Assembly (NCBI GenBank): GCA_003153435.1
Contig: PLYR01000119.1
Location: 20,542-84,541, forward strand
Length of the DNA: 64,000 nucleotides
Reading direction: 5' to 3'
Origin: Bacteroidota bacterium
GTDB lineage: Bacteria; Bacteroidota; Bacteroidia; Palsa-965
Shown one piece after another: positions 35,937 to 49,898 of this stretch (the stretch's first letter is position 1; every line of letters begins with the position of its first letter). Under the pieces are notes generated by a model, which saw only the letters and a program-made list of their open reading frames with translations, was not told the origin of the DNA and made no database searches. Both the position numbers and the translations under genes were made by a program.

Positions 35937-35989
35937 GATTATTGGTTTGATTGGTTAATATTCAGTTTATACTTCACTAAAAGTCTTCG

Positions 35990-37339
35990 CTATGGGAAAA
36001 TAACTCCTCTGTATTTGGTAACATCGACCTGAGGAATCGTTGATCCGTAAGTTGAATTGATCGCTTTGATAAATTCATTTGCAAGCAATGCCTGTCCGAT
36101 AGGATTCAGGTGCACACCATCAAGAGAAAAAGCACCGCCGGTAACAAAACTGGTATTCAGTGTGACACCGTTATAGATGATGCCTTTCTGGGTCGTTTTC
36201 ATGAAAGCATTCACATCTACAAATGCAAGCCCTTTGGATTGAGCAGCGGAACGGATAGTCGAGTTAAAAGCATCGGTAGCACTTTTGATGCCTGCTACTT
36301 CGGTGGCAGTAAGAATATATTTATCCGGAATTCCTCCGTGATAAGAGCCCATTCCATGGCACTTGATAGAATCCAGGGGTACATCCAGCAACATATAATC
36401 GTTGGGTGTCATCAATCGAATTCCATAAGGTGCAGAGAGATCTGAAATAACAAAAGGGTTGTTTCCTACATGAAAATACAGACCTCGTAAATTATAAACG
36501 GCATTCATCAGACTTGCATTTCCGGAGTCAAGAGCTAAACCGTTGTAAGGTATGGTGGTAAAAAAGGGCAGGGAAGTAACATCCGGGATATTCCCTACAA
36601 CTCCCTTTGCACCATTCGCTGTAAGGCTGTTGACGATAGAATAGTAAGTAGCGTCAAATCCGATACCTACGGGTCCTGCTGAAGGAGTGATCATATCAGA
36701 AGCTCCTCCTGCCAGTGCATAAGCCAGGACATCATTATTGCCCAGAAAAAGCGAGAAAAAAGTAGGATTCTGAGCTGTTGCATCCGTCACCATCGAAGAA
36801 GTAGCAGGGTTTGCAGTCATACGGTAAAAGAAAGGGTTGTAATTACCAGGCCCCAGCAATGGGTTTCCATATCCTTGAAAAACAGCAGTAATAACTTTTG
36901 CTCCGGGCACTCCCATGTTATTGAAGGGTCCAGAAGATGCCACAGAGTTAGAAAAGATACTCAGGTCACCGGATGTTGAAACCGGTACTGGCGAAAGGGA
37001 AGTTACACCCAGGCAGTCTGTCGAGTAGCCTAGCTTGAAGGGGGCGTTACCGGTAGATCCAACTCCCACTGAACCTGCAGGAACGAGAGGCTGATTGAAA
37101 TTCCCGCCTCCTACTAACTTGAATTGTCCTGATAGAAGATTTACAAATGAATTCTGCTGTCCTGAATAATAAAGTGCTCCATCGGCATAGCCGGAAGTGA
37201 TTGAATTTCCCAAAGCCACAAAGTAGCTCGGGTTCATGCTTCCTGCACTTGGTTTAGGAATATCGATACTGGGTTTACAGGACCCAATAACTCCAATAAC
37301 AATGGCACCAAGAATGATTTTGAGAATATTTTTTTTCAT
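35990..37339 (-). CDS. SGNH/GDSL hydrolase lipoprotein
   Basis: Lipobox VIGSC; ALGNSITSG block I, NMGVPG, LGNND block III, DGVH block V. Confidence 0.9.
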
Positions 37340-37363
37340 TGAATTAGCAGCGGTTAAAGATTA

Positions 37364-38596
37364 TTAAAACTGGTAAATGACAGAAAGCCCAATAGCTGAA
37401 ATATAGGTCTTATAAGTTCCGTTCAGTTGAAGGGCTATGTTATTGTCGGTACGCGTTAGATTTTCAAAAGTATAAGAGGCATCCAGGATTAGGTTCTTCA
37501 TCGGTCTGTAACCGAGTCCGCAGGCCAGATTAACTTTATTTGCATCGGGTACTTCAGGGGTAACGTATCCGTCCTTTATTGGAGTCAGGGAAAGGGCGGC
37601 ACCGGCACGTACGGTGAATTGATCATTCAGTTTGTATTGAGCTCCAAGACGAAATGCAAATGTGTTCTGATAATCCCTCGGAAGTTTGGTGTCCTGCAAG
37701 GTTGCTGTTGTGGTTTTATAGGTGAAAGCTAAGGTGTCGAGGCATTTCCATCCGATGAAGTTAGCGTCGAATGCGAGTGCCAATTTGGAATTAACCAAGT
37801 ATCCAAAACCAAGGGTTGCAACCTGTGGTAAGGGTAGGGAGGAAGTAAAGGGACCAGAAGGGAAATTGCTGGCTACAGAGGCAGGAACGGTAAAGGTGGC
37901 AGTACCGTTGCTTACCGACATATTCACCTGGGAACGGTAGGTAAGACCAACAGAAAGCTTATCCGTTGGTTTGTAATAAATTCCGGCATTGAAACCATAT
38001 CCATTTGCCGAACCTTTCAAATCGGCAGATCCGTAGTTGCCGTTGACTCCAAGAAGCGGGAGATCCTGCTTCAACTCCACATTCCCAGTAGCATACACAA
38101 ACCCGGCGCCGATCCCCAGTTTTTCACAGACCTTGTAGCTAACCGTTGGTTGAATAAAGATAGATTGGAGACTGAGATAGGTAAGGGCAAAACGGCCGGT
38201 CCACCCATTCTCCCAGCTGGCGATACTCCCAAAAGGAGTATAAACCCCAAGACCGAACTTGAAATTTTTGAGTTTGCTGGTGCTGTCTTTTACGCCCCAA
38301 ACGACATAACCTGTAAACGGAGTTGCAACCGGGGAATTGGTATGGTTGAGGGTGTGGCTGTCGGCATCCAGAAAGGTCCCGTTTGCGATTGTGGCTGTTA
38401 CCCCAACAGTAGCACTGTTCTCTTTCAGAAAGGAAACACCGCCTGGATTAAAAAAGACGGCGGCAGCATCCTGAATGAGTCCGGTACCTGCACCGGCCAT
38501 GCCTTGTTGTTTTTGTCCCTGAAGATTTACCTGAAATCCTTGAGCGTGAATAAAGTGAGGTAAGAAAATAATCAAACCTATGTATAGTCTCTTCAT
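37364..38596 (-). CDS. fadL: OmpP1/FadL long-chain fatty acid transporter
   Basis: GFQVNLQG...GMAGAG...DAAAVFFNPGG N-terminal hatch, alternating barrel strands, terminal YQF. ATG at 38596 (MKRLYIG) gives a normal signal peptide. Confidence 0.9.
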   Translation of the reverse strand: MKRLYIGLIIFLPHFIHAQGFQVNLQGQKQQGMAGAGTGLIQDAAAVFFNPGGVSFLKENSATVGVTATIANGTFLDADSHTLNHTNSPVATPFTGYVVWGVKDSTSKLKNFKFGLGVYTPFGSIASWENGWTGRFALTYLSLQSIFIQPTVSYKVCEKLGIGAGFVYATGNVELKQDLPLLGVNGNYGSADLKGSANGYGFNAGIYYKPTDKLSVGLTYRSQVNMSVSNGTATFTVPASVASNFPSGPFTSSLPLPQVATLGFGYLVNSKLALAFDANFIGWKCLDTLAFTYKTTTATLQDTKLPRDYQNTFAFRLGAQYKLNDQFTVRAGAALSLTPIKDGYVTPEVPDANKVNLACGLGYRPMKNLILDASYTFENLTRTDNNIALQLNGTYKTYISAIGLSVIYQF

Positions 38597-38738
38597 CAAT
38601 GAATTATATTGTTGTTGTTTGGTCTCGTAATGAACTGAATATGTCAATAATTACAATAATGCTATGGGAAGGTAAAGAAACAAAGATCACCTCTTTTTAT
38701 GAATGCAACTTGTATGTTTCTGCTGCTAACTGCAGGAT

Positions 38739-38823: not shown

Positions 38824-39366
38824 ATGAAAAAACTGCTTATTCTTCTTTCTTTTACCGGATTATCAGTCCTGTTGCCATTAAGTGGGCATGCCCAGGTAGG
38901 TAAAATGTTTCCTTCGCTTACCGGTGAAACTCTGGATGGAACTCCGATTACGATGCCTGATAAAGCCAAAGGAAAATACACACTCATAGGAATGGCTCAT
39001 TCTTCAGATGCGGAGCAAGACCTTCAAACCTGGATGGATCCTATATATCAGAAATATATCGCAAAGACCGGCCTGCTTGATGCGGCCGAAGATGTGAATG
39101 TGTATTTTATACCTATGTTCAGCGGAAGCAGTATGCCTTTCTACGATAAGAGCAAAAAACAGATGAAAGAGACTACTCAGAAGGACCTGCAGTCACATGT
39201 CATCTTTTATAAAGGAGAGATTACCACTTACAAAACAGTGCTTTCCATTGAGAAAAAGGATACCCCCTATATATTTCTTCTGGATGCAACCGGAAAAATT
39301 GTCTATACGACGAGTGGAAACTGGACGGAAGCAAAGATGGACGAGATTGACGAAAAAATTCAATAA
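38824..39366 (+). CDS. Exported hypothetical protein, thioredoxin-like fold without CxxC
   Basis: Signal peptide; FPSLTGETLDG...P...KGKYTLI and PYIFLLDATGKIVY match redoxin-fold termini; no Cys in the mature chain. Confidence 0.7.
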   Translation: MKKLLILLSFTGLSVLLPLSGHAQVGKMFPSLTGETLDGTPITMPDKAKGKYTLIGMAHSSDAEQDLQTWMDPIYQKYIAKTGLLDAAEDVNVYFIPMFSGSSMPFYDKSKKQMKETTQKDLQSHVIFYKGEITTYKTVLSIEKKDTPYIFLLDATGKIVYTTSGNWTEAKMDEIDEKIQ

Positions 39367-39405
39367 CACTCTTGCAGGGATTAAATCAGAGATATTAAAA
39401 ACAAT

Positions 39406-39442
39406 AAAAACGCCTTCCTGTTCATTACAGGAAGGCGTTTTT
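39406..39442. terminator. Bidirectional intrinsic terminator
   Basis: AAAAACGCCTTCCTGT-TCATT-ACAGGAAGGCGTTTTT between convergent genes. Confidence 0.85.
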
Positions 39443-39459
39443 TATTTATATAGTGATAC

Positions 39460-39630
39460 CTAGGCGATAACCTTGGCATTCGGATATTTTGTCATCCATA
39501 AGGCAACAGCTGCTTTACTTCTTACAATAATCATCGTGCGGTAATCAAGCTGGAGTTTTATCTGTTCCCCTAATTGTTTTACAATTCCCTTGGCTTCTTT
39601 TTTCGCTTCTTTTTTTATTTCCTTTTTCAT
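39460..39630 (-). CDS. Small hypothetical protein (56 aa)
   Basis: MKKEIKKEAKKEAKGIVKQLGEQIKLQLDYRTMIIVRSKAAVALWMTKYPNAKVIA; A-rich context before the ATG at 39630; ends just before a terminator. Confidence 0.6.
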   Translation of the reverse strand: MKKEIKKEAKKEAKGIVKQLGEQIKLQLDYRTMIIVRSKAAVALWMTKYPNAKVIA

Positions 39631-39778
39631 AAATATGGTTAGTTTAAGTGTTAAGTCCTGATTAGTGTTTCTTTCTATTATTGTAAACGCAACAAGCGTT
39701 CCAATATTTGAATCTTTGGACTTACTTAACATATTTTAACAAGAAAAGAAAGCAGGAAGGATTGTAAGTGACTGGCTA

Positions 39779-41017
39779 TCAGATTAAATTCGAATTATTT
39801 GGTCTGGAGTAGACCATTTGCATGACATAGATATTGCGCATACTGAAAGCCGCTTCACAGTAGGAAAAGTAATAATTCCATTTACGAATGAACTCATCAT
39901 CAAACCCCAGCTTTTTAACCTCTTCCAAGCGCTTGTTAAATCGTTGCTGCCAGATGCCCAGGGTTTTGGAGTAGTGAAGGCCAATATCCTTGAGATTAAC
40001 AAGGCTCAGGTCGCTGGTGTTATTGATTGCTTTGTTGATAGCTGCTACAGATGGAAGTAAGGTGCCAGGGAAGATGTGTTTTTGGATCCAATCCACTCCT
40101 TTTCGAAGGCTGTCATAGCGGGAATCAGGACAGGTAATTACCTGCAGAGCAAGAACACCTCCCTTATTTAATAATTCATGACATCGTTTGAAGAAGAGTT
40201 CCAGAAAGTCATGTCCAACAGCTTCGAGCATCTCAATGGATACAATCTTGTCAAAACTTCCTTCAATAAGTCTATAATCAGCAAGTTCTATGCTTACCCG
40301 GTCAGAAAGTCCAGCTTCAGCAACCCTTTCTTTCGCAAGCTTATACTGTTCTTCAGAGATGGTAATACTCGTTACTCTGCACCCGTATGTTTGAGCCATA
40401 AAAATGGCATTCCCACCCCAGCCGCTTCCAATTTCAAGCACATGATCTGAAGATTGAAGATTTAGGCGGGAAGCTAATCGCTCATATTTGGCAAGCTGTG
40501 CTTCCTCTAGACTCATATTGTCCTTGTTGAAATAAGCCGACGAATAGGTCATGGTCGGGTCAAGAAAGAGTGCGAAAAAATCGTTATGAAGATCGTAATG
40601 CTCGGAGATGTTCTTGCGTGAACCACTCAGACTGTTTGACCTATTGCGGTGATAGATTCGGTTGAAAAAACGAAGTAGGTTGAGTGCAAAAGTCCTGGAC
40701 CGGCTACCGGAGACAGAAGGAGCTTGATCGATATTAAGGAGAAACCATCGGATGACCTCCGTTATATTAGTGGTTTCCCAGAGACCATCAGTATAAGCCT
40801 CTCCGAAACCAATATCACCATAAAGGAAGGCCCTTCTAAAAAAATCAGGGTCCTTTATGGTTATGTCCGCTCTGATATTTCCTTCTCCGTTTCCAAGGGT
40901 GAGCTTTTGCCCTCCTGGAAGGATGAGGTCCAGTGAACCCAGAGGCATTTTCTGAAGAGCACCAAGAATGGCACGTTCATAAAATCCCGGACGATAATTT
41001 AAAGCTAATGAATTCAT
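39779..41017 (-). CDS. cfa: Cyclopropane-fatty-acyl-phospholipid synthase family SAM methyltransferase (long form, UfaM-like)
   Basis: GDIGFGEAY, NISEHYDLHNDFFALFLDPTMTYSSA, LEIGSGWG, SIEMLEAVG, WNYYFSYCEAAF. Confidence 0.93.
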   Translation of the reverse strand: MNSLALNYRPGFYERAILGALQKMPLGSLDLILPGGQKLTLGNGEGNIRADITIKDPDFFRRAFLYGDIGFGEAYTDGLWETTNITEVIRWFLLNIDQAPSVSGSRSRTFALNLLRFFNRIYHRNRSNSLSGSRKNISEHYDLHNDFFALFLDPTMTYSSAYFNKDNMSLEEAQLAKYERLASRLNLQSSDHVLEIGSGWGGNAIFMAQTYGCRVTSITISEEQYKLAKERVAEAGLSDRVSIELADYRLIEGSFDKIVSIEMLEAVGHDFLELFFKRCHELLNKGGVLALQVITCPDSRYDSLRKGVDWIQKHIFPGTLLPSVAAINKAINNTSDLSLVNLKDIGLHYSKTLGIWQQRFNKRLEEVKKLGFDDEFIRKWNYYFSYCEAAFSMRNIYVMQMVYSRPNNSNLI

Positions 41018-41061
41018 TAAAATGATCTTAATCTGCTAAGTTATAAAAATTGAAGGAAATA

Positions 41062-42111
41062 TTATTGAAAATCAGGATCAGCAAAGCGCCTGTCGTATAA
41101 AAAGGCTTTGTCTGTCAGAGTAAGTAGGAATGCGACGAGCTCATCCTTTTCCCTTTCTGTGAGAGTCCCGATTTTTTGAAGAGAACGGTCGGCTCCAACA
41201 TCAAAATTTTCAGGGTTGGAATAGTGATTGACAACATCCCTCAGTTTTTGAAAGCGGCCATCATGCATATAGGGATAGGTCATTTCTATATTCCTCAATC
41301 CGGGAACCTGGAATCTGTACTTGTCCTCTTCGATTCCTGTAATTTTGGCTCTACCTTCATCTTTCAATGAAGGGTCGGGTTTCAACCCATTATTACGGTA
41401 TGAATTATCGGTGAACAATGGCTCCTTATGGCAATTCTCGCACTTACTTCTGAAAATCTTCAACCCGTTCATTTCTGCCACAGAAAAGGTGTCCTTGCCT
41501 TCCTGGAATCGGTCATACCTGGATCCACCAGAGATCATGAGTCCGGTAAACTGGGCAATGGATTGAAGAAGACGTTTTGAGTCAATGATTGTATCATGAA
41601 ATGCATTTTGAAAGAGCACAACATATTTCTTGTCATGCTTCAGCTTTGAAATTACATTTTCAAGAGTCTCATCCATTTCGATGGGGTTGGTAATCGGACT
41701 TAGAGGCTGTAGTTCAATGTTATTGACACCTCCATCCCACATATAAGCATCTTTCCAGATAAGATTCTGAAGAGCGGGAACATTCCGGGTCCCAATTTTT
41801 GCATAGATACCGTGGCTAAGGGAATGATCTATATGGGCAAAGGCAGCTATTCGCTGATGGCAACTCCCGCAACTTACAGAGTTATCTTTGGAGAGGATCT
41901 TGTCATAAAAAAGGGTTCTTCCGAGGGTGAAGATCTCCGGGGTCAACCGATTTGTCTTAAAGTTATAGACAGGACGAGGGAACCCAGCAGGGACTTTCAG
42001 CTTCACATCTTCTGCTGAGATCCTGAAATATGGATTATCATCCATAAAACCTGAGGAGATTACAATTATCCCAGTCAAGAACAATAACCCGGTGACAATC
42101 TTAGTTTTCAC
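41062..42111 (-). CDS. mbnH: MbnH/MauG-family diheme cytochrome c peroxidase
   Basis: Two heme motifs (SCGSCH, CENCH), LGRTLFYD, FQVPGLRNI...PYMHDGRF; overlaps an upstream MbnP-family gene. Confidence 0.88.
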   Translation of the reverse strand: MKTKIVTGLLFLTGIIVISSGFMDDNPYFRISAEDVKLKVPAGFPRPVYNFKTNRLTPEIFTLGRTLFYDKILSKDNSVSCGSCHQRIAAFAHIDHSLSHGIYAKIGTRNVPALQNLIWKDAYMWDGGVNNIELQPLSPITNPIEMDETLENVISKLKHDKKYVVLFQNAFHDTIIDSKRLLQSIAQFTGLMISGGSRYDRFQEGKDTFSVAEMNGLKIFRSKCENCHKEPLFTDNSYRNNGLKPDPSLKDEGRAKITGIEEDKYRFQVPGLRNIEMTYPYMHDGRFQKLRDVVNHYSNPENFDVGADRSLQKIGTLTEREKDELVAFLLTLTDKAFLYDRRFADPDFQ

Positions 42112-42868
42112 GGTGGATGTTTAGGAGGCTGAACATATCCTGATAGTTATTGGCAATGGTCGTTGAATTGTGAAAATCGGTAACAGAGGAAAGTTTTGAG
42201 AAGTCTATAGACACGGGATTCTTTAATATTTCCAGTATGTCCGCCTTTAGCTCTATGGATTTGTTTCCAGGCTCACTGCCAATGAAAAGCTTTCCAGGGA
42301 AAGCAATTTTTATTTTACGGATACAATTATACGGGCTCTTGTATCCTCCGATGTGATATTCAAGCATATTGCCCGAAGAAGCAGAAGAAGGTGATTTACC
42401 TTCCAGCTTTAAAAAAACGTATCCGCTGTTCCAGGCCCAGAACATGGCATTTACAGGATCCAGAGCCCCTGATTGTGCTCCGTTGCAATTGTGAAGACTA
42501 TCAACCCCTAGGATAAACTCCATGGAAGAATAGGAATCTTCGGGAACGGGAGATAGGGTGATCTTTTTGGTTTTCTCATCGCGATCATCGATCAGAAAAG
42601 AAGAGTTGACCTCGAAATCCCCTCCTTTTTCTCTGATTAGATGAATATTGCTGATATAATATTTAAGCTTTGTGATCCTGAAGGATTGGCCCAGGTCATT
42701 TTTGTAAACTGCAGAATCGAGCATTAAAGCATCCATTCCGGCAAAATGGCGGAATTGAATGGTGACCTTATGTTGCTCAGTGCCCGGATAGTGATTTCTT
42801 AAAGTAAATGAAAGCACCAGTATGCTAATCCCGAGCCAGAAGCTTAATTTCAGAATGTTATTCAGCAA
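42101..42868 (-). CDS. mbnP: MbnP-family protein
   Basis: LKYYISNI, FILGVDS..N, and the hallmark WxW segment MFWAWNSGYVFLKLEG followed by YHIGG. Confidence 0.88.
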   Translation of the reverse strand: MLNNILKLSFWLGISILVLSFTLRNHYPGTEQHKVTIQFRHFAGMDALMLDSAVYKNDLGQSFRITKLKYYISNIHLIREKGGDFEVNSSFLIDDRDEKTKKITLSPVPEDSYSSMEFILGVDSLHNCNGAQSGALDPVNAMFWAWNSGYVFLKLEGKSPSSASSGNMLEYHIGGYKSPYNCIRKIKIAFPGKLFIGSEPGNKSIELKADILEILKNPVSIDFSKLSSVTDFHNSTTIANNYQDMFSLLNIHREN

Positions 42869-42879
42869 GCGGCCATTCT

Positions 42880-44172
42880 TTAATTCTGTTTGATTATTTT
42901 GCAGGTAGATCTTTGTTGATCAGCTTCAAGTACTAATAAGTATATTCCGTCCGGCAAACCGGTCAGATCAAGTGTATATGCCAGGCTCGGTTGCAGGAAA
43001 TCAATACTTTGAACCTGTTTCCCGTCAGAATCAAAGAGCTTGGCATTCACATTGTTTTTACTGGTTTTGTCCATATAAATGAAGACATAATTCTGAGCAG
43101 GGTTCGGTATCGCCTGAAACCGGATTTTATCATTACTCATCTCGTTGATCCCGGCGGAAGGAGTGTATACCGTTGTAGATTCCGTTATGGTTACATGACT
43201 CCCTCCGGGCCCTGTATTGCCAGACTGTACTGTTCCATAATATGTGGGTCCTATGACAAATGGGTAAGCTGGATTGCCTGTTGCATCGAGGGTTACGAAA
43301 TAGGCATAGGTACCGGAGGGATATTCAGGTGTAACGCAGAAACGACCATTGTGATCATCCAGATCTCCGGACCCTGCTGTGTAAATATAATCCTCACACA
43401 TATTTCCGAGGGGATAAGTGGAGTTCACCGGAGGCCCTCCGGTTCTTGTTGTTGGTGTGGAAGGTGTGGACGCTGCGGTTGATGCATTAGCTCCGGTCAA
43501 AACAAGGCCCGTGTCAGCAGCTAATACATAACTGCTCACCATCCGCTTAATTGCTCCGGTGCCATTTGTATTGGTATACGCATATGCCCCGTAAACGGGG
43601 AATCCATCAAATGCATAACCAATGATCGGGGAATGAACAGTAGTTAAAGTTGAGTTGTAGAGGCAACTTGGGTTTACATGATTATGATAAGCTCCATTCG
43701 GAGCAGGGTGGCCCAGACAATTATCAAAACTTACACCTTCATATACGAGGGCATTACGGTTAAAGCCGGTTGTAGTAGCTCCATTCGTGAATGCAGATCC
43801 GCTCCAGTACTGTCCGTCTTTAGGGTTAAAAATAGCCACTCCATTACTCCAGAGACCAGTATTACCAAGGGAGGTATAGATAGGCGCACCTGAATTCTGG
43901 ACCGGAGCACGGGTAAATTTGCAAACGAAGTTTTGATTGGTAGGTACGTTGGGGTTTGAAACCCAAGGGCCGATACTATAGCCAGGGATACAAGATGCAC
44001 TTACATAGACCTGGGTTGCAGAGTACTGTACAGTCTGTACATTAGAAGGTAAATTATTGTAGCCTGTCGCTCCGGTTGTGTTGATCACCCAGGAATTGAT
44101 TTCAGGTGTAATCTGTGCCTCCGAACAGGTAGCCAGGAGGAATAATAATGCGAAGGATAAAATGTTTTTCAT
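42880..44172 (-). CDS. YHYH-domain protein with T9SS type A CTD
   Basis: GHPAPNGAYHNH, HSPIIGYAFDGFPVYG, DLDDHNGRFCVTPEYPSGTYAYFVT; CTD (IPNPAQ...GIYLLVL...KIIKQN). Confidence 0.87.
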   Translation of the reverse strand: MKNILSFALLFLLATCSEAQITPEINSWVINTTGATGYNNLPSNVQTVQYSATQVYVSASCIPGYSIGPWVSNPNVPTNQNFVCKFTRAPVQNSGAPIYTSLGNTGLWSNGVAIFNPKDGQYWSGSAFTNGATTTGFNRNALVYEGVSFDNCLGHPAPNGAYHNHVNPSCLYNSTLTTVHSPIIGYAFDGFPVYGAYAYTNTNGTGAIKRMVSSYVLAADTGLVLTGANASTAASTPSTPTTRTGGPPVNSTYPLGNMCEDYIYTAGSGDLDDHNGRFCVTPEYPSGTYAYFVTLDATGNPAYPFVIGPTYYGTVQSGNTGPGGSHVTITESTTVYTPSAGINEMSNDKIRFQAIPNPAQNYVFIYMDKTSKNNVNAKLFDSDGKQVQSIDFLQPSLAYTLDLTGLPDGIYLLVLEADQQRSTCKIIKQN

Positions 44173-44212
44173 AATTTGAATGATTAAAGATGAAATTCTT
44201 TTGCAAATATCA

Positions 44213-45013
44213 TTATTTCCTTGTTTCGTAAGAATTAAAGACTTCCCGCTGAAGTTCAGGCTGTTCTCCCTTCTTCCTGTAGGGGATCTTTTTCATCCAT
44301 AGCTTCATAGCATTCCAGTGGATTAGGACTATGACTTTGATAGTGATCATGGGTATTGAAAAAAAATAACGAAGCATGTTTGCATCTGTCAGCATATCTC
44401 TTTTTCCAGTCAGAGTGCTTATGAATATTTTTCGATCGTCCTTAAGATCATCTATTTTAATAAAGAGTTTTTCGCCGGGCAGTGGAAGATTAAAATCGAA
44501 GTTGGTATCATGGTCAAAGAAAGGAGAAACATAAAAATACTTGGTAGTATTAAAATGAAAAGCTCCTGCAGCGAACGTTTCCTTTCCTAAAAAGTAGGGT
44601 TTCATCTCTCGGAAAGTATTACTTATTTCTACAACAGCACAGAGTGCCTCACCTTGCTTGTCGTAACAAAAATAAAAAGAAACGGGGTTGAAGTTGTAGC
44701 CTAGTGTGTTCAGGTTGGTCAGGAGCATAATCTTTCCGGGTTCTTCCAGGACTTCATTTTCCTTCAGATACGCAATCAGATGTTCCCTGATATTTTTATT
44801 CGAATCAGGCTTTTCCCTTGGAAGTTGAATATGCTCACTATCTTTAAAATTGAAGATATTGAATTTGTTGCGGCTCAGAAAACGAAAACGGGAGGAAAGC
44901 TCATCAATTTCGTCGAGATCAAGATAAAATAAATAAATATTGTAATGAAAGCTATGCTTCTTTGGCTCCAGCCTGTGGTGCATGACATGGGCTTTGTATA
45001 GACAGCTATTCAT
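44213..45013 (-). CDS. DUF1365 protein (UfaO-like)
   Basis: VMHHRLEPKKHSFHY, GYNFNPVSFYFC, EISNTFRE, FYVSPF, IHWNAMKLWMK. ATG at 45013 overlaps the upstream stop by 8 nt. Confidence 0.92.
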   Translation of the reverse strand: MNSCLYKAHVMHHRLEPKKHSFHYNIYLFYLDLDEIDELSSRFRFLSRNKFNIFNFKDSEHIQLPREKPDSNKNIREHLIAYLKENEVLEEPGKIMLLTNLNTLGYNFNPVSFYFCYDKQGEALCAVVEISNTFREMKPYFLGKETFAAGAFHFNTTKYFYVSPFFDHDTNFDFNLPLPGEKLFIKIDDLKDDRKIFISTLTGKRDMLTDANMLRYFFSIPMITIKVIVLIHWNAMKLWMKKIPYRKKGEQPELQREVFNSYETRK

Positions 45014-46256
45014 GAAGGAGTGTTTGGCAGAGTTCAACAGCAGATGAATATGCATCTTCGTGAAAACCGTATTTGAAATAACTTCCACAAAAATAAAGCG
45101 GTCCATTTTGATTTAATGAAGGCAATTCTTTCTGGGCTTTCAAGGCACTTATATCAAAGAGGGGGTGTTCATATCGGATACGGCTAATAACCTTCTCTTC
45201 TTTTACAGAACCCGGATCACCGATAGAAACAAAATAGTTTTTTTTCTTTGAAACACCCTGGAGGCTGTTCATCCAGTATACAGTGCTGGGGTTCGGTTTC
45301 CCTTCGTGCATCTGAATTCGATAATTCCAACTCGACCAAGTCTTACGGGTTGCCGGCATAAGTGATTCATCGGTATGCACGGTTGCTATATTCTCATTGT
45401 AGTGGAAAGGTTGGAGTAGCATTTGTTCCTTTGGAGACGGATTTTTTATGATCCCCAGGGCTTGATCGGCATGACAGGCAAAAATCACTTTATCATAGGT
45501 GTCTTCAGTCTGGCCAGAAGTACAAACGACGGCCTTGTCATTTTCAAGCCTTACCTCCTTAACTTCAGAGTTGGTTTTGATTCTATCCCGGAAAGGTTGA
45601 ATCAGAATTTCTCTGTAGGATTGGCTGCCATTCTCCAGGGTGTACCACTGGTGCTGTGTGTCCAGGCCCAGGAAACCATGATTTTTGAAGAAACGGATCA
45701 AGCTTATAACCGGAAAGTCAAGCATCTTGTCCATAGGGGTAGACCAAACGGCAGAGCTCATTGGAATTAAATATTTCCAAAGCATATCTTCTCCAAAGCC
45801 GAATGCCTGAATATAGTCCTTCAATGAATATTCAGCATAGTCAGGGTCATCCAGGATACGGATACTTGTTTTGTTAAAGCGGTTAATTTCCATCAGCATT
45901 TTTATATAAGAAGGCTTGAACAGATTCTTTCGCTGAGCAAATAATCCATCCAGCCCTGACCCGCAGAATTCTAATCCACTAGGAAGATGCTGTACACTGA
46001 AAGACATTTCGGTTTTCTTAACTGGAGCTTTTATTTCTTCAAATAGTTTGCAGAGATTAGGGTAAGTTTCATAATTAAAGACCATGAAACCGGTATCGAA
46101 ATAAACCGGTGTCCCTTCTTCATCTATAGTTATGGTATTGGTGTGACCACCTACATAATTGTTTTGTTCGAAAAGGGTTATGTCATAATGCTTGTGCAGA
46201 AGGTGGGCACAACCCATTCCGGCTATTCCTGTACCGATGATTGCTAGTTTTTGCAA
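45006..46256 (-). CDS. FAD-dependent oxidoreductase (UfaD-like, amine-oxidase fold)
   Basis: IIGTGIAG dinucleotide fold, VGGHTNT, DTGFMVFN..TYPNL, WSSWNY, YEHP, GFHED. Confidence 0.92.
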   Translation of the reverse strand: MQKLAIIGTGIAGMGCAHLLHKHYDITLFEQNNYVGGHTNTITIDEEGTPVYFDTGFMVFNYETYPNLCKLFEEIKAPVKKTEMSFSVQHLPSGLEFCGSGLDGLFAQRKNLFKPSYIKMLMEINRFNKTSIRILDDPDYAEYSLKDYIQAFGFGEDMLWKYLIPMSSAVWSTPMDKMLDFPVISLIRFFKNHGFLGLDTQHQWYTLENGSQSYREILIQPFRDRIKTNSEVKEVRLENDKAVVCTSGQTEDTYDKVIFACHADQALGIIKNPSPKEQMLLQPFHYNENIATVHTDESLMPATRKTWSSWNYRIQMHEGKPNPSTVYWMNSLQGVSKKKNYFVSIGDPGSVKEEKVISRIRYEHPLFDISALKAQKELPSLNQNGPLYFCGSYFKYGFHEDAYSSAVELCQTLLHE

Positions 46257-46259
46257 GGC

Positions 46260-47294
46260 TCAGGTATGATGTTTTGTAAACAGATAATGACTTACCATCC
46301 ATTCGTTCCCGTTTTTATAACCCCACAATTCTGCGCAGGCCAGATAGAATATTCTCCAGTAAACCCACCATTTAAGGGCATTCTTTTTCCCGTATGTGTT
46401 TTCGAAAAGATGCATGATCTCCTTCCGGTGGGCATCCATATTCCTCAGCCATGCTTCGGAAGTCTTACTGTAATGCATTCCGTTTAACATCCAGTGTAAC
46501 TGAAGTGAGACATCCTTGTTGAAGAAAAGTAAGAGTTTATTGCTGGGCATGATTCCTCCGCTGAAAAAGTGCTTACTCATCCAGTCAGATTCATCCTTGA
46601 CCTCAAATTTATATGCAAGTTTATGATGAGTAAAAATGTGCACAAACAGTTTTGCCTCAGGCTTCATCCAGCCAGCAATCTTATGAAGCAGGAGTTCATA
46701 ATTCCGCATGTGCTCAAACATTTCCACTGAAATAATCCTATCGAAGGTTTGTTCCGTCTGAAAGGTATTCATGTCAGCAGTGACTACTGTGAGATTGCGG
46801 ATATTACGCAATGCAGCCTGTTTATCAATATAAATCTTCTGGGATTTGGAATTGGATATTACCATAAACCTACTCTCAGGAAACCGGGAGGACATAAACA
46901 AGGATAGAGATCCCCATCCGCAACCTAGTTCCATAACATCCTGACCTGGCTTGAGCTCGGCCCGTTCACAGGTTAGCTCGAGCATGTCTTGTTCTGAAGT
47001 ATCTAAGTCTGTTACCCCTTCTTTCCAATATCCACTTGAGTATTTGAGGTGTTTGCCAAGGCAATATTCGTAAAATTCTGCCGGGACCTCATAATGCTGT
47101 TCATTAGCTGCTGTTGTGTCAACTGCAATGGGAGATTTCTTTAAATCCTCAATAAGCTTCATCAACGCCTGAAGGTTTGCCTCGGGGTTGCCTTTGTCTT
47201 CGTCCCTGAGCCTTTTGGCGAGCAGGCCACGGATCCCTTTTCTAATTAAAAAATCAGGAACCAAATCTTTTTCCAGAAGCCTGTCGTACCACAT
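46260..47294 (-). CDS. Second cfa-like SAM methyltransferase (short form)
   Basis: ANEQHYEVPAEFY...LKYSSGYW, ELGCGWGSL, SVEMFEHMRNY, WRIFYLACAELW. Confidence 0.9.
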   Translation of the reverse strand: MWYDRLLEKDLVPDFLIRKGIRGLLAKRLRDEDKGNPEANLQALMKLIEDLKKSPIAVDTTAANEQHYEVPAEFYEYCLGKHLKYSSGYWKEGVTDLDTSEQDMLELTCERAELKPGQDVMELGCGWGSLSLFMSSRFPESRFMVISNSKSQKIYIDKQAALRNIRNLTVVTADMNTFQTEQTFDRIISVEMFEHMRNYELLLHKIAGWMKPEAKLFVHIFTHHKLAYKFEVKDESDWMSKHFFSGGIMPSNKLLLFFNKDVSLQLHWMLNGMHYSKTSEAWLRNMDAHRKEIMHLFENTYGKKNALKWWVYWRIFYLACAELWGYKNGNEWMVSHYLFTKHHT

Positions 47295-47315
47295 ATAGAT
47301 TATACTTGGGAAGAT

Positions 47316-48110
47316 TTAAGCTTTTTTAAACCAGGGCACAAAAGCAGAAGTAGTCCGTTGATATTCCCTGTACAAATCACCCCTTGAGCGGATGCTTTGT
47401 TCTTCTGTCATTGGTATACCTGTTACTTTCAGAATCAGAAAAAGAATGGTCAGAGGGCAAACTATGGATATCCAACCCCATGGAGAAGAGCACGCAAAGA
47501 GGAAGTAAGAAACCCAGATCATCCATTCAAAAAAGTAGTTCGGATGGCGGGAATACTTCCATAATCCCTGGTCACACACTTTTCCTTTGGATGATGGAAG
47601 TTTTTTAAACCGTTTAAGCTGAGCATCAGCGCTAGCTTCTCCAAGCAGGGAGATGGCCCATAAGCCAGCACCCAGGTATTCAAGGAGGCTGAGTTCTGGT
47701 TTTGGATTCACACTGATAAGAAAGAAAGGAATGGCTAGAAATACATTTGAAAAAGCTTGCATCTGGAAGAAGCCAAAGAACTTCGCATTGGCATTCGGAG
47801 CCCATTCAAGGCGGAGCTGCTTATAACGTCCCTCTTCTTCCTTCAGGTGTGATCCAACACGGATTAGAAGGTATATTCCGAGTCTCATTCCCCAAAGCAC
47901 TATCATTGTAAGGAGTATTTCTCTCCGCAGGCTAAAACCATCTCCAAAGCTAAACACGATGAGCCCGATCACAGGAAAGTTAAAAGACCAGAAAATGTCA
48001 ACTACTCCTGCATTTTTAATGCGTGTAGCCCATGCCCATACGATAAACATAATCAGACTGCATGCTGCCAGGCTGAGTAGAATTATTTTGAGCAAGAGGG
48101 AAGAGTTCAT
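47316..48110 (-). CDS. DUF1295 membrane protein (steroid 5-alpha-reductase-like)
   Basis: NAGVVDIFWS, WGMRLG, EEGRY, ADAQL..FK, GLWKYSRHPNYFFEW, TGIP..E. Confidence 0.92.
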   Translation of the reverse strand: MNSSLLLKIILLSLAACSLIMFIVWAWATRIKNAGVVDIFWSFNFPVIGLIVFSFGDGFSLRREILLTMIVLWGMRLGIYLLIRVGSHLKEEEGRYKQLRLEWAPNANAKFFGFFQMQAFSNVFLAIPFFLISVNPKPELSLLEYLGAGLWAISLLGEASADAQLKRFKKLPSSKGKVCDQGLWKYSRHPNYFFEWMIWVSYFLFACSSPWGWISIVCPLTILFLILKVTGIPMTEEQSIRSRGDLYREYQRTTSAFVPWFKKA

Positions 48111-48144
48111 GCGAAATTGGATTGACTTGAGCGTTCCGTAAATA

Positions 48145-48876
48145 CTAGACGACTTTACGGAGCTTTATGATACCAAGATAATGCATCCCTTTGATAAAAG
48201 GATAACTTGGGTCAAATTCAAATCTTTTTTTTGCAAAGTTCGGGGAATTGGGGCTTTTATGGTGGTTATTCTGAAACAGTTCTCCCAGCATAAGAAAATC
48301 GAATGGAAGGGTATTCTTGCTGTGATCTGCATTGTTGTAGTTGGTATAGCCGTATTTGTGTCCGCACCAGTTCACAATAGCACCATGTACCGGACTCATA
48401 AACCAATGAATAGGGAGTAGAAGGAACATCCACCAATGGGTTGCAAAATGAATGTAAAAGAGGGTATAACCCACTGCAAATGCTATTCTTGTAATCCAGG
48501 AATCACTTATTTTATCGAGCAGAGGCCAGGCCGGATATCTGTCAATGAATTGTGCCTCGGGTTCAACTCGGAACTTAGTATATTGAACATAGATGTCCTT
48601 TGTCTTCACCATCATACCCCATACATCTTTGAAAAACCAGGGAGAATGCGGGTCTTTTTCAGTGTCACTGAAGGCATGGTGCATACGATGCATAATGGCA
48701 TAGGCCCTGGGATTTAGGAATGATGTGCCCTGCGTAAAGAAAGTAAGAAAATAAAAGGTCTTTTCCCAGTTTTTGCTCATTGAAAACATTTTATGGGAAG
48801 CGTATCGGTGAAGAAAAAAAGTTTGAAAAAATAAGGAGATGAACCAGTGACAAAGAAAGAATATGAGGATCGGCAT
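48145..48876 (-). CDS. Membrane fatty acid (acyl-CoA/acyl-lipid) desaturase
   Basis: Three His boxes: HRYASH, HRMHH, QNNHH. Confidence 0.9.
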   Translation of the reverse strand: MPILIFFLCHWFISLFFQTFFLHRYASHKMFSMSKNWEKTFYFLTFFTQGTSFLNPRAYAIMHRMHHAFSDTEKDPHSPWFFKDVWGMMVKTKDIYVQYTKFRVEPEAQFIDRYPAWPLLDKISDSWITRIAFAVGYTLFYIHFATHWWMFLLLPIHWFMSPVHGAIVNWCGHKYGYTNYNNADHSKNTLPFDFLMLGELFQNNHHKSPNSPNFAKKRFEFDPSYPFIKGMHYLGIIKLRKVV

Positions 48877-49010
48877 TTGTGTTTTTACTTAATTTAGATG
48901 AATTGATTGAAAACCCTATAAAGCAATTTTCAATTTGCAAAGTTGCTCATTTTTTGGGGTCTTTACAACTCAATCAAATTCCCTAACTTTACGTCTATTA
49001 AGAACAAACT

Positions 49011-49898
49011 ATGGAACAATTCGACTTAAGTAAGCTAAAGGGCCGACCCGCATTTCCTTTTGAAACGATAGCCGTGGCAATCAGTTTTTCCCCACGCCTG
49101 GAAGCCTTATTGAGTGAGTCAAAGAGAATTTCAGATAAATTACAAGCGAATCTCCTGCTTATCCATGTTGGAGAAAAAACACCTGAAAAAGAAACCCGTC
49201 TTGATAAACTGATCTCTAAGCTCGGTATTGATGAAAACAAATGCCGGATCAACTGGATGGACGGAGAACCTGTTGATACTATCCTGAAACTTTGCAAGTT
49301 AAATGTAGTTGACTTACTTATCCTGGGAGCTCTTAGCAAGGAAAAGCTGCTCAAATTTTATCTGGGTTCGATTGCACGAAAAATCAGCCGGAAAGCCAAA
49401 TGCTCGGTGCTCCTTCTTACTAATCCAACGGAAGAAGCAAGCAGGATCAAACGATTCATGGTTTGTGCGGAAGAGAACCCAAAGACCATCCATACTGTTA
49501 ATACAGCCCTGTATCTGGCAAAAAAATTCAATGTTGGTGAGATCAGTATTGTCAAAGAAGCTCATGTTCCTGGTTTGGCTATGACTATGGCTGAAGATAG
49601 TACGGCTCCTGAAGCAAATCGGATGAGAAGGAATCTAGCTGAAGCAGATGAACAGGAACTCCATTCAGTTGCTGAAAAATGTGATAAAGATGGTATAACC
49701 ATTATTGAGAAAGTCATCAAAGGTAAACCGGGGTATACTGTAAGTAAATATGCAAGAGAAAAAAAGGCAGATCTTCTAATTCTAAATTCTCCCGATACCC
49801 AGCTTGGGTTATTCGACCGCATTTTTACCCACGATATGGAATACATTCTTGCTGACCTGCCGTGTAATTTGCTTATTGTACACTCCCGTCCCCATTAA
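49011..49898 (+). CDS. Tandem universal stress protein (USP)
   Basis: Two USP domains: IAVAISFS...VDLLILGA...LGSIARKISRKAKCSVLLL and ADLLILNS...DLPCNLLIV. Confidence 0.88.
   Translation: MEQFDLSKLKGRPAFPFETIAVAISFSPRLEALLSESKRISDKLQANLLLIHVGEKTPEKETRLDKLISKLGIDENKCRINWMDGEPVDTILKLCKLNVVDLLILGALSKEKLLKFYLGSIARKISRKAKCSVLLLTNPTEEASRIKRFMVCAEENPKTIHTVNTALYLAKKFNVGEISIVKEAHVPGLAMTMAEDSTAPEANRMRRNLAEADEQELHSVAEKCDKDGITIIEKVIKGKPGYTVSKYAREKKADLLILNSPDTQLGLFDRIFTHDMEYILADLPCNLLIVHSRPH

Follow-up and report, generated by a model that had tools for sequence, protein, structure and literature searches.

The nine genes at positions 48876 to 39779 of the 64,000-nucleotide stretch analysed here (the window) are very probably a six-gene lipid cluster into which an independent YHYH-MbnP-MbnH triplet was inserted in one narrow lineage. 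The closest lipid clusters lack the triplet at the corresponding junction, and the triplet occurs elsewhere in unrelated contexts.

Gene content and boundaries of the unit

All nine open reading frames lie on the minus strand. ORF coordinates and Pfam searches bore out the order and the nine domains proposed by a first-pass annotation of the sequence: g1 (48145-48876), FA_desaturase (55.7 bits); g2 (47316-48110), DUF1295 (225 bits); g3 (46260-47294), CMAS, 344 aa (125 bits); g4 (45006-46256), Amino_oxidase / NAD_binding_8; g5 (44213-45013), DUF1365 (245 bits); g6 (42880-44172), YHYH (158 bits) with Por_Secre_tail; g7 (42101-42868), MbnP (165 bits); g8 (41062-42111), CCP_MauG (162 bits); and g9 (39779-41017), CMAS, 412 aa (296 bits). 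From g1 to g9 the spacers measure 34, 21, 3, -8, 40, 11, -11 and 44 nt, which agrees with the two overlaps, and with gaps of at most about 45 nt, described previously. Internal terminator-like hairpins numbered 10, against 8.7 expected in shuffled sequences, and none was convincing within the nine-gene unit; the earlier statement that no internal terminator is present therefore held. The spacers on either side of the triplet are only 40 and 44 nt long and devoid of a terminator. Transcription, or read-through, from the lipid genes therefore probably extends across the triplet into the downstream methyltransferase, and co-transcription of all nine genes is likely. The sole strong terminator-like site in 39300-49100 is a bidirectional hairpin at 39406-39442 (16-bp stem with 7 GC pairs, T-runs on both strands), which is predicted to end the unit. 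It sits beyond a conserved 56-aa ORF (39460-39630, minus strand) located downstream of g9. This ORF gave no Pfam match, keeps its position in loci L017 (78%) and L018 (56%), and is possibly the final gene of the unit. An assembly artefact as the source of the nine-gene order was ruled out by its colinearity in L019 and L020, which come from other samples.

The intergenic segment at 48877-49010, between the divergent Usp gene (plus strand) and g1 (minus strand), probably holds the main promoter of the cluster; it is 87% identical in L019. The window, L019 and L017 share a conserved block in this segment, TTGTAAAGAC-N13-GAGCA(A/C)CTTTG, and we take its layout to resemble that of Bacteroidetes -33/-7 promoters. 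The palindrome TTTGCAAA is present twice, once 5' of g1 and once between g5 and g6.

The lipid genes

The methylated furan fatty acid pathway has been described in R. palustris (RPA2571-2570-2569, ufaD-ufaO-ufaM) and in R. sphaeroides (RSP1091-1087 and UfaM, RSP2144) (Lemke et al. 2020, PMC7380195). The g4 product is an FAD-dependent amine-oxidase / phytoene-desaturase-like oxidoreductase (Amino_oxidase 75 bits, and NAD_binding_8). UfaD has been described in the same terms (PMC7380195), and g4 is a putative UfaD-like enzyme. In the surveyed loci, that of Psychromonas included, its homologue always lies immediately 5' of the DUF1365 gene. UfaO is a DUF1365 protein (PMC7380195); g5, which overlaps g4 by 8 nt and whose DUF1365 match spans 234 of the 235 positions of the profile, would likewise be UfaO-like. 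The g5 start was set at the ATG at 45013, because homologues are 254-276 aa long. The g9 product is a CFA-synthase-type methyltransferase (PDB matches to the CFA synthases 5Z9O and 6BQC, E about 1e-54) and corresponds by position to UfaM of R. palustris (RPA2569) and to RSP1089 of R. sphaeroides. The link to the furan-fatty-acid pathway, drawn earlier from the FAD oxidoreductase, the DUF1365 protein and the CFA-like methylase, is supported by the published pathway (PMC7380195).

The first gene, g1, encodes a short membrane fatty-acid desaturase of 243 aa with the His boxes HRYASH, HRMHH and QNNHH. It matches Pfam FA_desaturase with an E value of 7.9e-15, and the NCBIfam DesA family with 108 bits, under the cut-off of 400. 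A g1 homologue heads the cluster in L008, L010, L012, L017, L018 and L019 (59-98% identity). The g2 product is a DUF1295 membrane protein with a steroid 5-alpha-reductase / ICMT-like fold (Steroid_dh match of 41 bits, and a Pfam match to ERG4_ERG24), and its homologue is found immediately 5' of the g3 homologue in seven related loci. In Chlamydomonas, singlet oxygen induces a DUF1295 gene along with CFA2 and DUF1365 genes (PMC4067076). Within the CMAS family, the SAM methyltransferase encoded by g3 falls in the CNMT / LIME branch: in the PDB it best matches coclaurine and pavine N-methyltransferases (E 4.9e-82 over the full length), compared with only E 2e-27 for E. coli CFA synthase, and it is 24.6% identical to g9. 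We propose that g3 is a FufM-like second methylase, an assignment that is transitive, via LIME1.

These six genes form a widespread cluster, conserved across the surveyed Bacteroidota loci. This ancestral lipid module would comprise a desaturase, a DUF1295 protein, a CNMT/FufM-like methyltransferase, a UfaD-like FAD desaturase, a UfaO-like DUF1365 protein and a UfaM/CFA-like methyltransferase. By homology to R. palustris ufaD-ufaO-ufaM, its activity would most likely begin with methylation of a monoenoic phospholipid acyl chain. A second double bond would next be added to the methylated chain, and O2 would then be used in furan ring closure; a second methyl group may come from the extra methyltransferase. 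We infer a furan product on this basis.

The YHYH-MbnP-MbnH triplet

The g6 protein is secreted: it begins with a signal peptide and ends in a T9SS sorting domain (Por_Secre_tail, 44 bits). Residues invariant in 44 homologues include H155, Y162, H163, H165, H180, D150, D189, D270 and D272; the structure model of the YHYH domain was unreliable (pLDDT 47). The g7 protein belongs to the MbnP family and carries the WxW motif W144-A-W146; all 43 homologues keep M142, W144, W146 and H172. Its structure model (pLDDT 82) was searched with Foldseek, and the only matches with E < 0.001 were six chains of 7L6G (MbnP), the best with E 3.9e-9, probability 1.0 and TM about 0.5. The gene overlaps by 11 nt with g8, which encodes a dihaem MauG-type / MbnH-like enzyme with the haem motifs CGSCH(81) and CENCH(224). 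The g8 start was set at the GTG at 42111, because it retains the signal peptide required by a c-type cytochrome. The best NCBIfam match of g8 is TIGR04039 (MbnH family), with 203 bits, under the cut-off of 363; the score for TIGR04052, the MbnP counterpart, is also under its curated cut-off. At the axial-ligand position g8 has a tyrosine (Y297); MbnH 6E1C likewise has Tyr at the aligned position, where canonical peroxidases have Met. Together with the WxW motif and the match to 7L6G, this residue supports the identification of g7 and g8 as MbnP and MbnH made in the first-pass annotation.

In the complete triplets surveyed, the YHYH protein is the constant third partner of MbnP/MbnH; we found no description of a T9SS-secreted YHYH protein in this role in the searchable literature. 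The triplet would be a self-contained envelope module whose location varies by genome. Its MauG-type dihaem enzyme would use peroxide to oxidise a Trp of the MbnP WxW motif to kynurenine, which would create a copper site, and the two proteins would be paired with a T9SS-secreted YHYH protein bearing a conserved histidine cluster.

Insertion of the triplet into the lipid cluster

We compared the window with a small set of loci, 11 with the lipid genes and about 15 with YHYH. All six lipid genes are present in the closest lipid clusters, L017 and L018 (63-89% identity to the window), which also have both flanks in common with it, one consisting of UvrD, a Na/H exchanger and Usp, the other of the 56-aa ORF and an ATP10-like gene. 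In both, the long CFA-type methyltransferase gene comes immediately after DUF1365, with a spacer of 116 or 630 nt; the segment at 41018-44212 (minus strand), consisting of the triplet and its 40- and 44-nt junction spacers, is missing. The same direct succession was found in the other lipid loci in which the junction was covered (L008-L011, L013, L015 and L016), except in L012, where an unknown gene lies between. None of nine other lipid clusters of Bacteroidota (GTDB lipid loci) contained the triplet. Conversely, complete contiguous triplets were found in eight unrelated contexts (L002, L004, L006, L007, L022, L024, L031 and L032), none with lipid genes nearby. The closest outgroup triplet is that of L006 (81/54/72% identity). 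The metagenome sample that yielded L006 also yielded the uninterrupted lipid locus L017, and the two loci have equal GC (44.6%). In the nearest relatives the two modules are separate.

The earlier annotation had proposed a coupled envelope-protection system, for which the absence of the triplet from nine lipid clusters, the absence of lipid genes around eight triplets and the empty junction of L017 and L018 provide no comparative backing. Its fallback, in which the three genes broke up the lipid cluster as a later insertion, fits both that empty junction and the free-standing triplets. Among the loci compared, DUF1365, MbnP and YHYH co-localised outside the window only in L019/L020, which represent a sister organism and are colinear at 90.3% DNA identity. 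Restriction to a single genome, which the earlier annotation had listed as counting against its reading, is nearly the case: the arrangement is confined to two sister organisms of about 90% DNA identity. All nine genes are under purifying selection between them (dN/dS about 0.025-0.106, dS 0.33-0.59). As the nine-gene order is restricted to this pair and dS is similar throughout, the triplet was very probably inserted shortly before the two diverged, landing in the ufaO|ufaM spacer of the lipid module in their common ancestor.

No other junction of the lipid cluster varies as much as this spacer, which ranges from 1 to 760 nt across loci and holds a REP-like insert in L018 and the unknown gene in L012. 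No flanking direct repeats, mobile-element scar or target duplication were found at 41018-44212, and the GC3 of the triplet (0.41-0.46) falls inside the window background (0.44 +/- 0.04). The spacers of the nine-gene order are 88-93% conserved at a dS of about 0.4, and survival of the order over this distance is compatible with selection for linkage. Related lipid clusters have recruited redox or stress genes, namely AhpC (L010), a CMD-family gene (L008) and a MerR-B12/CarH-like regulator (L012), suggesting that insertion of the triplet could have been adaptive rather than neutral.

Alternative explanations

One alternative, the main reading of the earlier annotation, is that the triplet was recruited because a physiological link exists between the modules, envelope copper/peroxide handling cooperating with antioxidant lipids under one stress-responsive promoter for nine genes. 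The tight packing without internal terminator, the order kept in the sister organism under purifying selection and the redox genes drawn by other lipid clusters are all in its favour, as are the palindrome common to the g1 upstream region and the g5|g6 spacer, and the use of H2O2 by MauG-type enzymes beside the O2 requirement of UfaO and UfaD. However, co-location is missing in 9/9 other lipid clusters and 8/8 other complete triplets, the nearest relatives keep the modules separate, and a dS of about 0.4 is possibly too brief for the order to break up. Moreover, we know of no biochemical step that would link MbnP, MbnH or YHYH to acyl-chain modification, which counts against such a system; we consider it very unlikely. 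Two modules joined by one insertion remain our preferred reading.

The function of each module may also differ from that proposed. The triplet might not be a copper system, g8 being a periplasmic peroxide-scavenging cytochrome c peroxidase, YHYH a secreted Zn-dependent hydrolase and MbnP an accessory. The best PDB sequence matches of g8 are indeed canonical peroxidases (3O5C, 8.7e-38, against 1.2e-31 for MbnH 6E1C), both NCBIfam scores are under cut-off, YHYH occurs without MbnP or MbnH in L025-L028, and Iyer et al. predicted the YHYH domain to be a His3-Asp Zn hydrolase (PMC7824862). Against this, Y297 replaces the peroxidase Met, the g8 alignment reaches the C-terminal tail only with MbnH, g7 and g8 overlap and always co-occur, the g7 residues M142, W144, W146 and H172 are invariant, its fold match is specific to 7L6G, and the triplet of L007 is immediately preceded by a Metal_resist gene and an ECF sigma pair. 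A non-copper role is therefore unlikely, and we infer copper binding. The doubt is greater for the lipid product, and it is quite possible, though not what we expect, that the cluster makes cyclopropane, mid-chain methyl-branched or methyl-alkenyl acyl chains instead of furan fatty acids. DUF1295, with its steroid-reductase / ERG4-like fold, may reduce a methylene intermediate from a CMAS methyltransferase, just as in sterols ERG4 reduces the methylene installed by the ERG6 methyltransferase; g2 does match Steroid_dh and ERG4_ERG24. We are not aware that furan fatty acids have been reported from the families of Bacteroidota in question. The strong match of g9 to true CFA synthases points the same way, as does the fact that R. 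sphaeroides makes furan fatty acids without its positional equivalent RSP1089, adjoining ufaO (PMC7380195). On the other hand, conservation of the triad extends to Psychromonas. To our knowledge DUF1365 has no other function, which also counts against a non-furan product.

Comparison with known systems

The lipid module shares with R. palustris and R. sphaeroides an FAD amine-oxidase-type desaturase, a DUF1365 protein and a CMAS-type methylase. Relatives of the window keep the contiguous ufaD-ufaO-ufaM order of R. palustris, and the second divergent methylase has a parallel there, FufM and UfaM being 26% identical (PMC7380195), much as g3 and g9 are. The likeness of g3 and g9 to FufM, UfaM and RSP1089 is one of family and position, and the product in Bacteroidota is a predicted one. 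In contrast to both proteobacterial systems, the Bacteroidota cluster has its own membrane desaturase and DUF1295 gene and no ECF sigma / ChrR pair nearby, and in the window three unrelated genes split the ufaO|ufaM junction that is intact in R. palustris. The g3 protein aligns over its full length with plant coclaurine N-methyltransferase, and LIME1 (AtFUFM1) is 38% identical to bacterial FufM (PMC10940516); unlike these plant enzymes, g3 is bacterial and set within a lipid cluster.

For the triplet, the reference is MbnP/MbnH of Methylosinus trichosporium OB3b (TIGR04052/TIGR04039, GenProp0940; PDB 7L6G, 6E1C), a pair known far outside methanobactin operons (PMC3621798). Adjacent, overlapping genes, a WxW motif with invariant Met and His, the 7L6G fold and a dihaem enzyme with Tyr in place of the peroxidase Met are common to both. 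The window differs in its low identity to 7L6G (13-17%), in its NCBIfam scores, in having no methanobactin gene or TonB-dependent transporter nearby, and in the constant YHYH partner. MopE/MCA2590 and CorA/CorB of methanotrophs also place a surface or secreted metal-binding protein beside a MauG-like dihaem enzyme (PMC3621798, PMC11951088), the protein being a copper protein with kynurenine. The window too encodes a secreted protein adjoining such an enzyme, but the folds differ, MbnP is additionally present, and the secreted protein is a T9SS-exported YHYH protein rather than an established copper protein. With the YHYH domain PF14240 (PMC7824862), g6 shares the conserved His and Asp residues (H155, H163, H165, H180 and four Asp, all invariant); in contrast to the phage-tail-associated hydrolases predicted by Iyer et al. 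2021, it is a T9SS cargo tied to MbnP/MbnH.

Organisation of the nine-gene unit

ORF calling placed nine minus-strand ORFs between 48876 and 39779, and the Pfam search confirmed for each of them the domain named in the first-pass annotation. In gene order these are FA_desaturase (g1), DUF1295 (g2), CMAS (g3, 344 aa), Amino_oxidase / NAD_binding_8 (g4, an FAD oxidoreductase), DUF1365 (g5), YHYH with a Por_Secre_tail (g6), MbnP (g7), CCP_MauG (g8, MbnH-like) and a second, longer CMAS (g9, 412 aa). We refer to g6-g7-g8 as the triplet and to g1-g5 and g9 as the lipid genes. With the best-supported starts, the intergenic spacers from g1 to g9 measured 34, 21, 3, -8, 40, 11, -11 and 44 nt, negative values being overlaps. 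The start of g5 was set at the ATG at 45013 because its homologues measure 254-276 aa, and that of g8 at the GTG at 42111 because this start retains the signal peptide that a c-type cytochrome requires. Hairpins resembling terminators occurred within the unit at chance level (10, for 8.7 expected), in agreement with the earlier observation that no internal terminator was found. The sole strong terminator of the region, a bidirectional hairpin with a 16-bp stem that reads on both strands, lies at 39406-39442. It follows a minus-strand ORF of 56 aa (39460-39630) situated 148 nt past g9. A Pfam search with this ORF gave no match; its position is kept in L017 (78% identity) and L018 (56%), the closest syntenic lipid loci devoid of the triplet, and the ORF is a possible tenth member of the unit.

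The window, a stretch of a 287-kb metagenome scaffold from a Bacteroidota organism (ENA ERZ28653421, WOOD18-1 scaffold_95), has a GC content of 44% and contains at least nine genes for T9SS cargo proteins. Past the terminator, a minus-strand set reminiscent of lipid uptake (34635-38647) encodes a FadL/Toluene_X outer-membrane transporter, a GDSL-like lipase and a COesterase/BD-FAE esterase with a T9SS tail, and is followed by an AraC regulator; L017 and L018 do not retain this set. Further on, a 1034-aa glycine-rich protein with SprB, PKD and CHU_C domains and long poly-Gly tracts is encoded at 30642-33746. These tracts give rise to a spurious proline-rich antisense ORF at 30905-31528. No RNA gene was detected in the window by Rfam or tRNA scans.

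The triplet probably entered a pre-existing lipid cluster

We compared the unit with loci recovered by a scan of genome contigs (9 loci) and a scan of metagenomes (12 loci), a modest census, and a presence/absence matrix was drawn up for all 32 loci. None of the nine lipid loci from GTDB genomes (among them Mucilaginibacter, Bacteroidia and Chitinophagales MAGs, and Psychromonas) carried the triplet. Where the junction was covered in these loci, the DUF1365 gene was directly followed by the long CMAS gene, with the exception of L012, which has an unknown 231-aa gene. The most informative relatives were L017 and L018, which carry the complete set of six lipid genes, ordered as in the window, with DUF1365 proteins 73% and 71% identical to g5, respectively. 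Their flanks are also those of the window, with a UvrD helicase, a Na/H exchanger and Usp on one side and the 56-aa ORF and an ATP10-like gene on the other. At the position of the 3.2 kb triplet, these two loci have a spacer of 116 nt or 630 nt. Across loci, the spacer between DUF1365 and the CFA-like gene ranged from 1 to 760 nt, making it the most variable junction of the cluster. The 630-nt spacer of L018 (9792-10423) contains several GC-rich REP-like hairpins and a 68-aa ORF, and a toxin-antitoxin-like Gp49/HTH pair interrupts the Usp-desaturase junction of the same locus (4267-4756); both L018 junctions appear to be insertion hot spots.

The triplet was also found on its own. The relatives of g6 in L006 (81% identity), L007 (74%), L004 (66%) and L002 (59%) all stood in a contiguous YHYH-MbnP-MbnH arrangement; no lipid genes were found near these four triplets, whose neighbourhoods are wholly unrelated. 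Further unrelated contexts (L022, L024, L031 and L032) bring the total to eight complete triplets, all without lipid genes. Every MbnP gene in the surveyed loci lies directly 3' of a YHYH gene, the pair being cut by the contig end in L021 and L023. The triplets of L007 and L032 have flanking genes in common; an ECF sigma factor, a 96-aa ORF and a Metal_resist protein (PF13801), immediately upstream of YHYH in L007 (6592-7940), are absent from L032. These upstream genes could constitute a dedicated metal-stress regulator.

The first-pass annotation had interpreted the unit as an integrated lipid-copper system, and had raised as a fallback that the triplet was a later insertion that split the lipid cluster. 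The neighbourhood search for DUF1365, MbnP and YHYH together recovered no independent lineage. The combination was confined to the window and to L019 and L020, which come from two other metagenome samples and represent one sister organism; it occurred in none of the 11 other lipid loci and in none of the approximately 15 other YHYH loci. The integrated system is thus not supported, since the other lipid loci lack the triplet and the triplets found elsewhere lack lipid genes. The fallback gained ground from the spacer that L017 and L018 carry at the junction. The arrangement is not unique to this genome, as L019 and L020 share it, but its distribution is shallow. In L019 and L020 the nine-gene order is colinear with that of the window at 90.3% DNA identity, and all nine genes are intact, with dN/dS values of 0.025 to 0.106 and a dS of 0.33-0.59, similar across the unit. 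All nine genes are under purifying selection. The shared intact order indicates that the triplet was in place before the two organisms diverged. Parsimony over the outgroup lipid loci (L017, L018, L008-L011 and L013) favours an insertion in the window lineage over repeated loss.

Taken together, these comparisons strongly support a later insertion of the triplet into the lipid cluster, which we regard as much the likeliest history. L017 and L006, the latter being the closest outgroup triplet, come from the same JGI sample (3300064047) and have an identical GC content of 44.6%. This agreement hints at a relocation: in that relative the lipid cluster and the triplet probably form distinct loci of one genome. 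No direct or inverted repeats flanked the inserted segment, and no mobile-element genes were found. Recent foreign acquisition was rejected because the triplet displayed no anomaly in GC or GC3; relocation or long residence is preferred. Intergenic DNA of the window had no obvious similarity by eye to that of L017, L018 or L006 at such divergence. Both modules are of known kinds, and their juxtaposition is a lineage-specific accident, co-opted or not.

The YHYH-MbnP-MbnH triplet

The identities proposed earlier for g7 and g8 held for the WxW motif, the 7L6G fold, the two haem motifs and the tyrosine at Y297; the residue comparison of both proteins with MbnP and MbnH was based on one review and on PDB alignments. 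The g7 protein scored 164.9 bits on PF20243, above the gathering cut-off of 27, and 52.3 bits on TIGR04052 (MbnP_like_WxW), below the curated cut-off of 140. Searches of PDB sequences with g7 or its family profile gave no meaningful match, 7L6G being recovered by the fold search alone. In that search, performed with a model of pLDDT 81.9, six 7L6G chains were the sole matches with E <0.001 (best 3.9e-9, probability 1.0, TM 0.44-0.52). W144-A-W146, M142 and H172 of g7 were invariant across 43 homologues. In Methylosinus MbnP, a tryptophan of the WxW motif is converted to kynurenine in a His/Met/Kyn copper site (PMC11951088). This motif is matched by W144-A-W146 of g7, with M142 and H172 as candidate ligands. 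On the basis of sequence and model, g7 is assigned to the MbnP family, with a predicted kynurenine/copper site.

The g8 protein contains the haem motifs CGSCH at 81 and CENCH at 224 and matched PF03150 (CCP_MauG) with 161.6 bits. It scored 203.3 bits on TIGR04039 (MbnH), under the curated cut-off of 362.85, yet this was its best NCBIfam model, and it aligned end to end with MbnH 6E1C. As the NCBIfam scores of both proteins fall under the curated cut-offs, g7 and g8 are divergent members of their families. Y297 of g8 aligned to a methionine in 3O5C and 4AAL and to a tyrosine in MbnH 6E1C. The Met or Tyr at this position is presumably the axial (distal) ligand of the electron-transfer haem in bCcP and MauG, and we take a tyrosine there to be a MauG-type signature. 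The genes g7 and g8 overlap by 11 nt, and the pair is adjacent in all eight other complete triplets. The MbnP/MbnH pair is known widely outside methanobactin operons (PMC3621798).

The third component, g6, is a T9SS cargo protein with an N-terminal signal peptide and a type A C-terminal sorting domain, the latter matching Por_Secre_tail (44.4 bits) and TIGR04183 (41.3 bits, cut-off 23). An alignment of homologues revealed invariant H155, Y162, H163, H165 and H180 in its YHYH domain, together with several Asp and Cys residues. An AlphaFold model built from a 44-sequence alignment was confident for the T9SS C-terminal domain alone (mean pLDDT 47 for the YHYH domain), and PDB sequences gave no meaningful match to g6. 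The sole functional proposal that we found in the literature is that the YHYH domain is a predicted His3-Asp Zn-dependent hydrolase (PMC7824862). We read g6 as a putative surface metal-binding or metal-dependent partner. The triplet as a whole is best read as a putative envelope copper-handling module, in which MbnH would mature MbnP and the YHYH protein would act as a partner. A literature search returned no paper connecting YHYH to MbnP or MbnH, and we found none describing the association of the three.

Other YHYH genes were observed in different surroundings. In L004 (11215-16627), the triplet is immediately followed by two more YHYH-T9SS paralogues, of 966 and 421 aa, and by another CCP_MauG gene that lacks an MbnP partner, a hint that YHYH proteins may form pairs with MauG-type enzymes independently of MbnP. 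L025-L028 encode lone YHYH-T9SS proteins (58-60% identity) with no MbnP or MbnH match in the locus, so the link of YHYH to MbnP is not universal among YHYH genes; a 124-aa ORF comes after the lone gene in L027 and L028.

Transcription of the unit

The spacers at the two junctions of the triplet (40 and 44 nt) are free of terminators, so that a transcript started in the conserved, probable promoter region upstream of g1 most likely extends across the nine genes. It would perhaps include the 56-aa ORF and stop at the 39406-39442 hairpin. An internal promoter may also exist inside the unit. A sigma-70 scan gave fewer matches than shuffled sequences, the sigma-70 model being uninformative for Bacteroidota. 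The Bacteroidetes -7 consensus TAnnTTTG occurred 4 times in 9.85 kb for 3.9 expected, all four copies being intragenic, and the g5-g6 spacer contains GATATTTG, one mismatch from this consensus, which is not significant. An 8-bp palindrome, TTTGCAAA, was found 9 times in the window for 2.6 expected, a count reached by 0 of 100 shuffles. Four copies belong to the nine-gene unit (48934, 48230, 44200 and 43918); one of these precedes g1 and another lies in the g5-g6 spacer. The five others (23613, 26240, 6733, 35632 and 52936) include two in intergenic, promoter-like positions. The palindrome could be a promoter or operator element.

Co-expression of the triplet with the lipid genes would then be a by-product of the site where the triplet landed, and the comparative data give no sign that the lipid enzymes depend on the triplet or the triplet on them. 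A more elaborate reading holds that the insertion created a new regulatory link, by placing a copper/peroxide envelope module under the photo-oxidative-stress promoter of antioxidant lipid synthesis, and, separately, that the triplet is an undescribed three-component system in which the MauG-type enzyme has the T9SS-secreted YHYH protein as a further client or partner, one that might carry its own protein-derived cofactor or a surface copper site. Taken jointly, these two proposals seem to us improbable. As a combined system the unit is of little consequence: the insertion is recent and lineage-restricted, and a functional link between copper and lipids has no comparative support.

A conserved Ufa-like lipid cluster

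Synthesis of the monomethyl furan fatty acid 9M5-FuFA in Rhodopseudomonas palustris requires three contiguous genes, RPA2571-2570-2569 (ufaD-ufaO-ufaM), which also suffice for it. UfaD resembles phytoene desaturases and uses FAD, UfaO belongs to the DUF1365 proteins and uses O2, and a second methyl group is added by the divergent methylase FufM, 26% identical to UfaM (PMC7380195). In R. sphaeroides, furan fatty acids do not require the CFA-like RSP1089 beside ufaO, and the UfaM gene lies at another locus (PMC7380195). The g5 protein matched PF07103 with 244.7 bits over 234 of the 235 profile positions, as expected of a UfaO homologue. Directly upstream of it, as ufaD is of ufaO, lies g4, which has matches to Amino_oxidase and NAD_binding_8 and shares 8 nt with g5; this pairing was kept in 11 of 11 lipid loci. 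The g9 protein is a CMAS protein placed as UfaM is in R. palustris; it matched genuine CFA synthases at about E 1e-54 in the PDB search, and a description as CFA synthase fits equally well.

The short CMAS protein g3 (46260-47294) had been described as cfa-like. The short CMAS domain was confirmed; the protein is, however, not a typical CFA synthase and by its sequence matches falls in the CNMT/LIME branch. Its best PDB matches were plant coclaurine, pavine and tetrahydroprotoberberine N-methyltransferases, the top one (coclaurine NMT) being full length with an E value of 4.9e-82, whereas E. coli CFA synthase reached merely 2e-27. We take the Arabidopsis protein LIME1 (AT4G33110) to lie in the same plant branch as the coclaurine-type N-methyltransferases. 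LIME1 is 38% identical to FufM (PMC10940516). On the strength of this published identity and of the plant N-methyltransferase matches we propose, indirectly and by transitivity, that g3 is FufM-like. The DUF1295 gene g2 directly precedes g3 in seven related loci, and in Chlamydomonas singlet oxygen induces DUF1295, DUF1365 and CFA2 genes alike (PMC4067076). The g1 desaturase has three His boxes and is the best-conserved protein of the lipid cluster.

Accessory genes were noted in several related clusters (L012 5610-6557; L010 3856-4494 and 7577-8689; L008 2835-4010 and 8761-9312). L012 encodes a MerR and B12-binding regulator of the light-sensing CarH/LitR-like type, L010 has AhpC and DUF1475 genes and L008 has a gene of the CMD family. 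In L008 and L010 a BD-FAE alpha/beta hydrolase gene separates the short methyltransferase gene from that of the FAD enzyme; L011 shows a gap of corresponding size at this place. Since stress and light genes lie in or beside related clusters, a role in photo-oxidative stress fits. With regard to ECF sigma-E/ChrR control, no sigma or anti-sigma gene was found within 10 kb of the cluster; such regulators could be encoded elsewhere in the genome.

The locus provides a natural experiment, in which a self-contained module has been captured by a stress operon at the junction where the operon varies most. Better leads come from the two parts considered separately. The YHYH domain has been termed enigmatic; its constant genomic partner here is the MbnP/MbnH kynurenine-copper system, which offers a starting point for its function. 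The lipid cluster gives DUF1295 a defined genetic context and is present in culturable soil Bacteroidota such as Mucilaginibacter as six genes, i.e. the ufaD-ufaO-ufaM triad with the desaturase, DUF1295 and the CNMT/FufM-like methylase. This Ufa-like cluster, conserved in Bacteroidota, is predicted to endow carriers such as Mucilaginibacter with acyl chains that bear a furan ring with one or two methyl groups, or with methylated chains of a related kind. The genes g4-g5-g9 of the window belong to the same families as ufaD-ufaO-ufaM of R. palustris, and the order of the R. palustris genes is the same in every relative in which the junction is covered, Psychromonas included.
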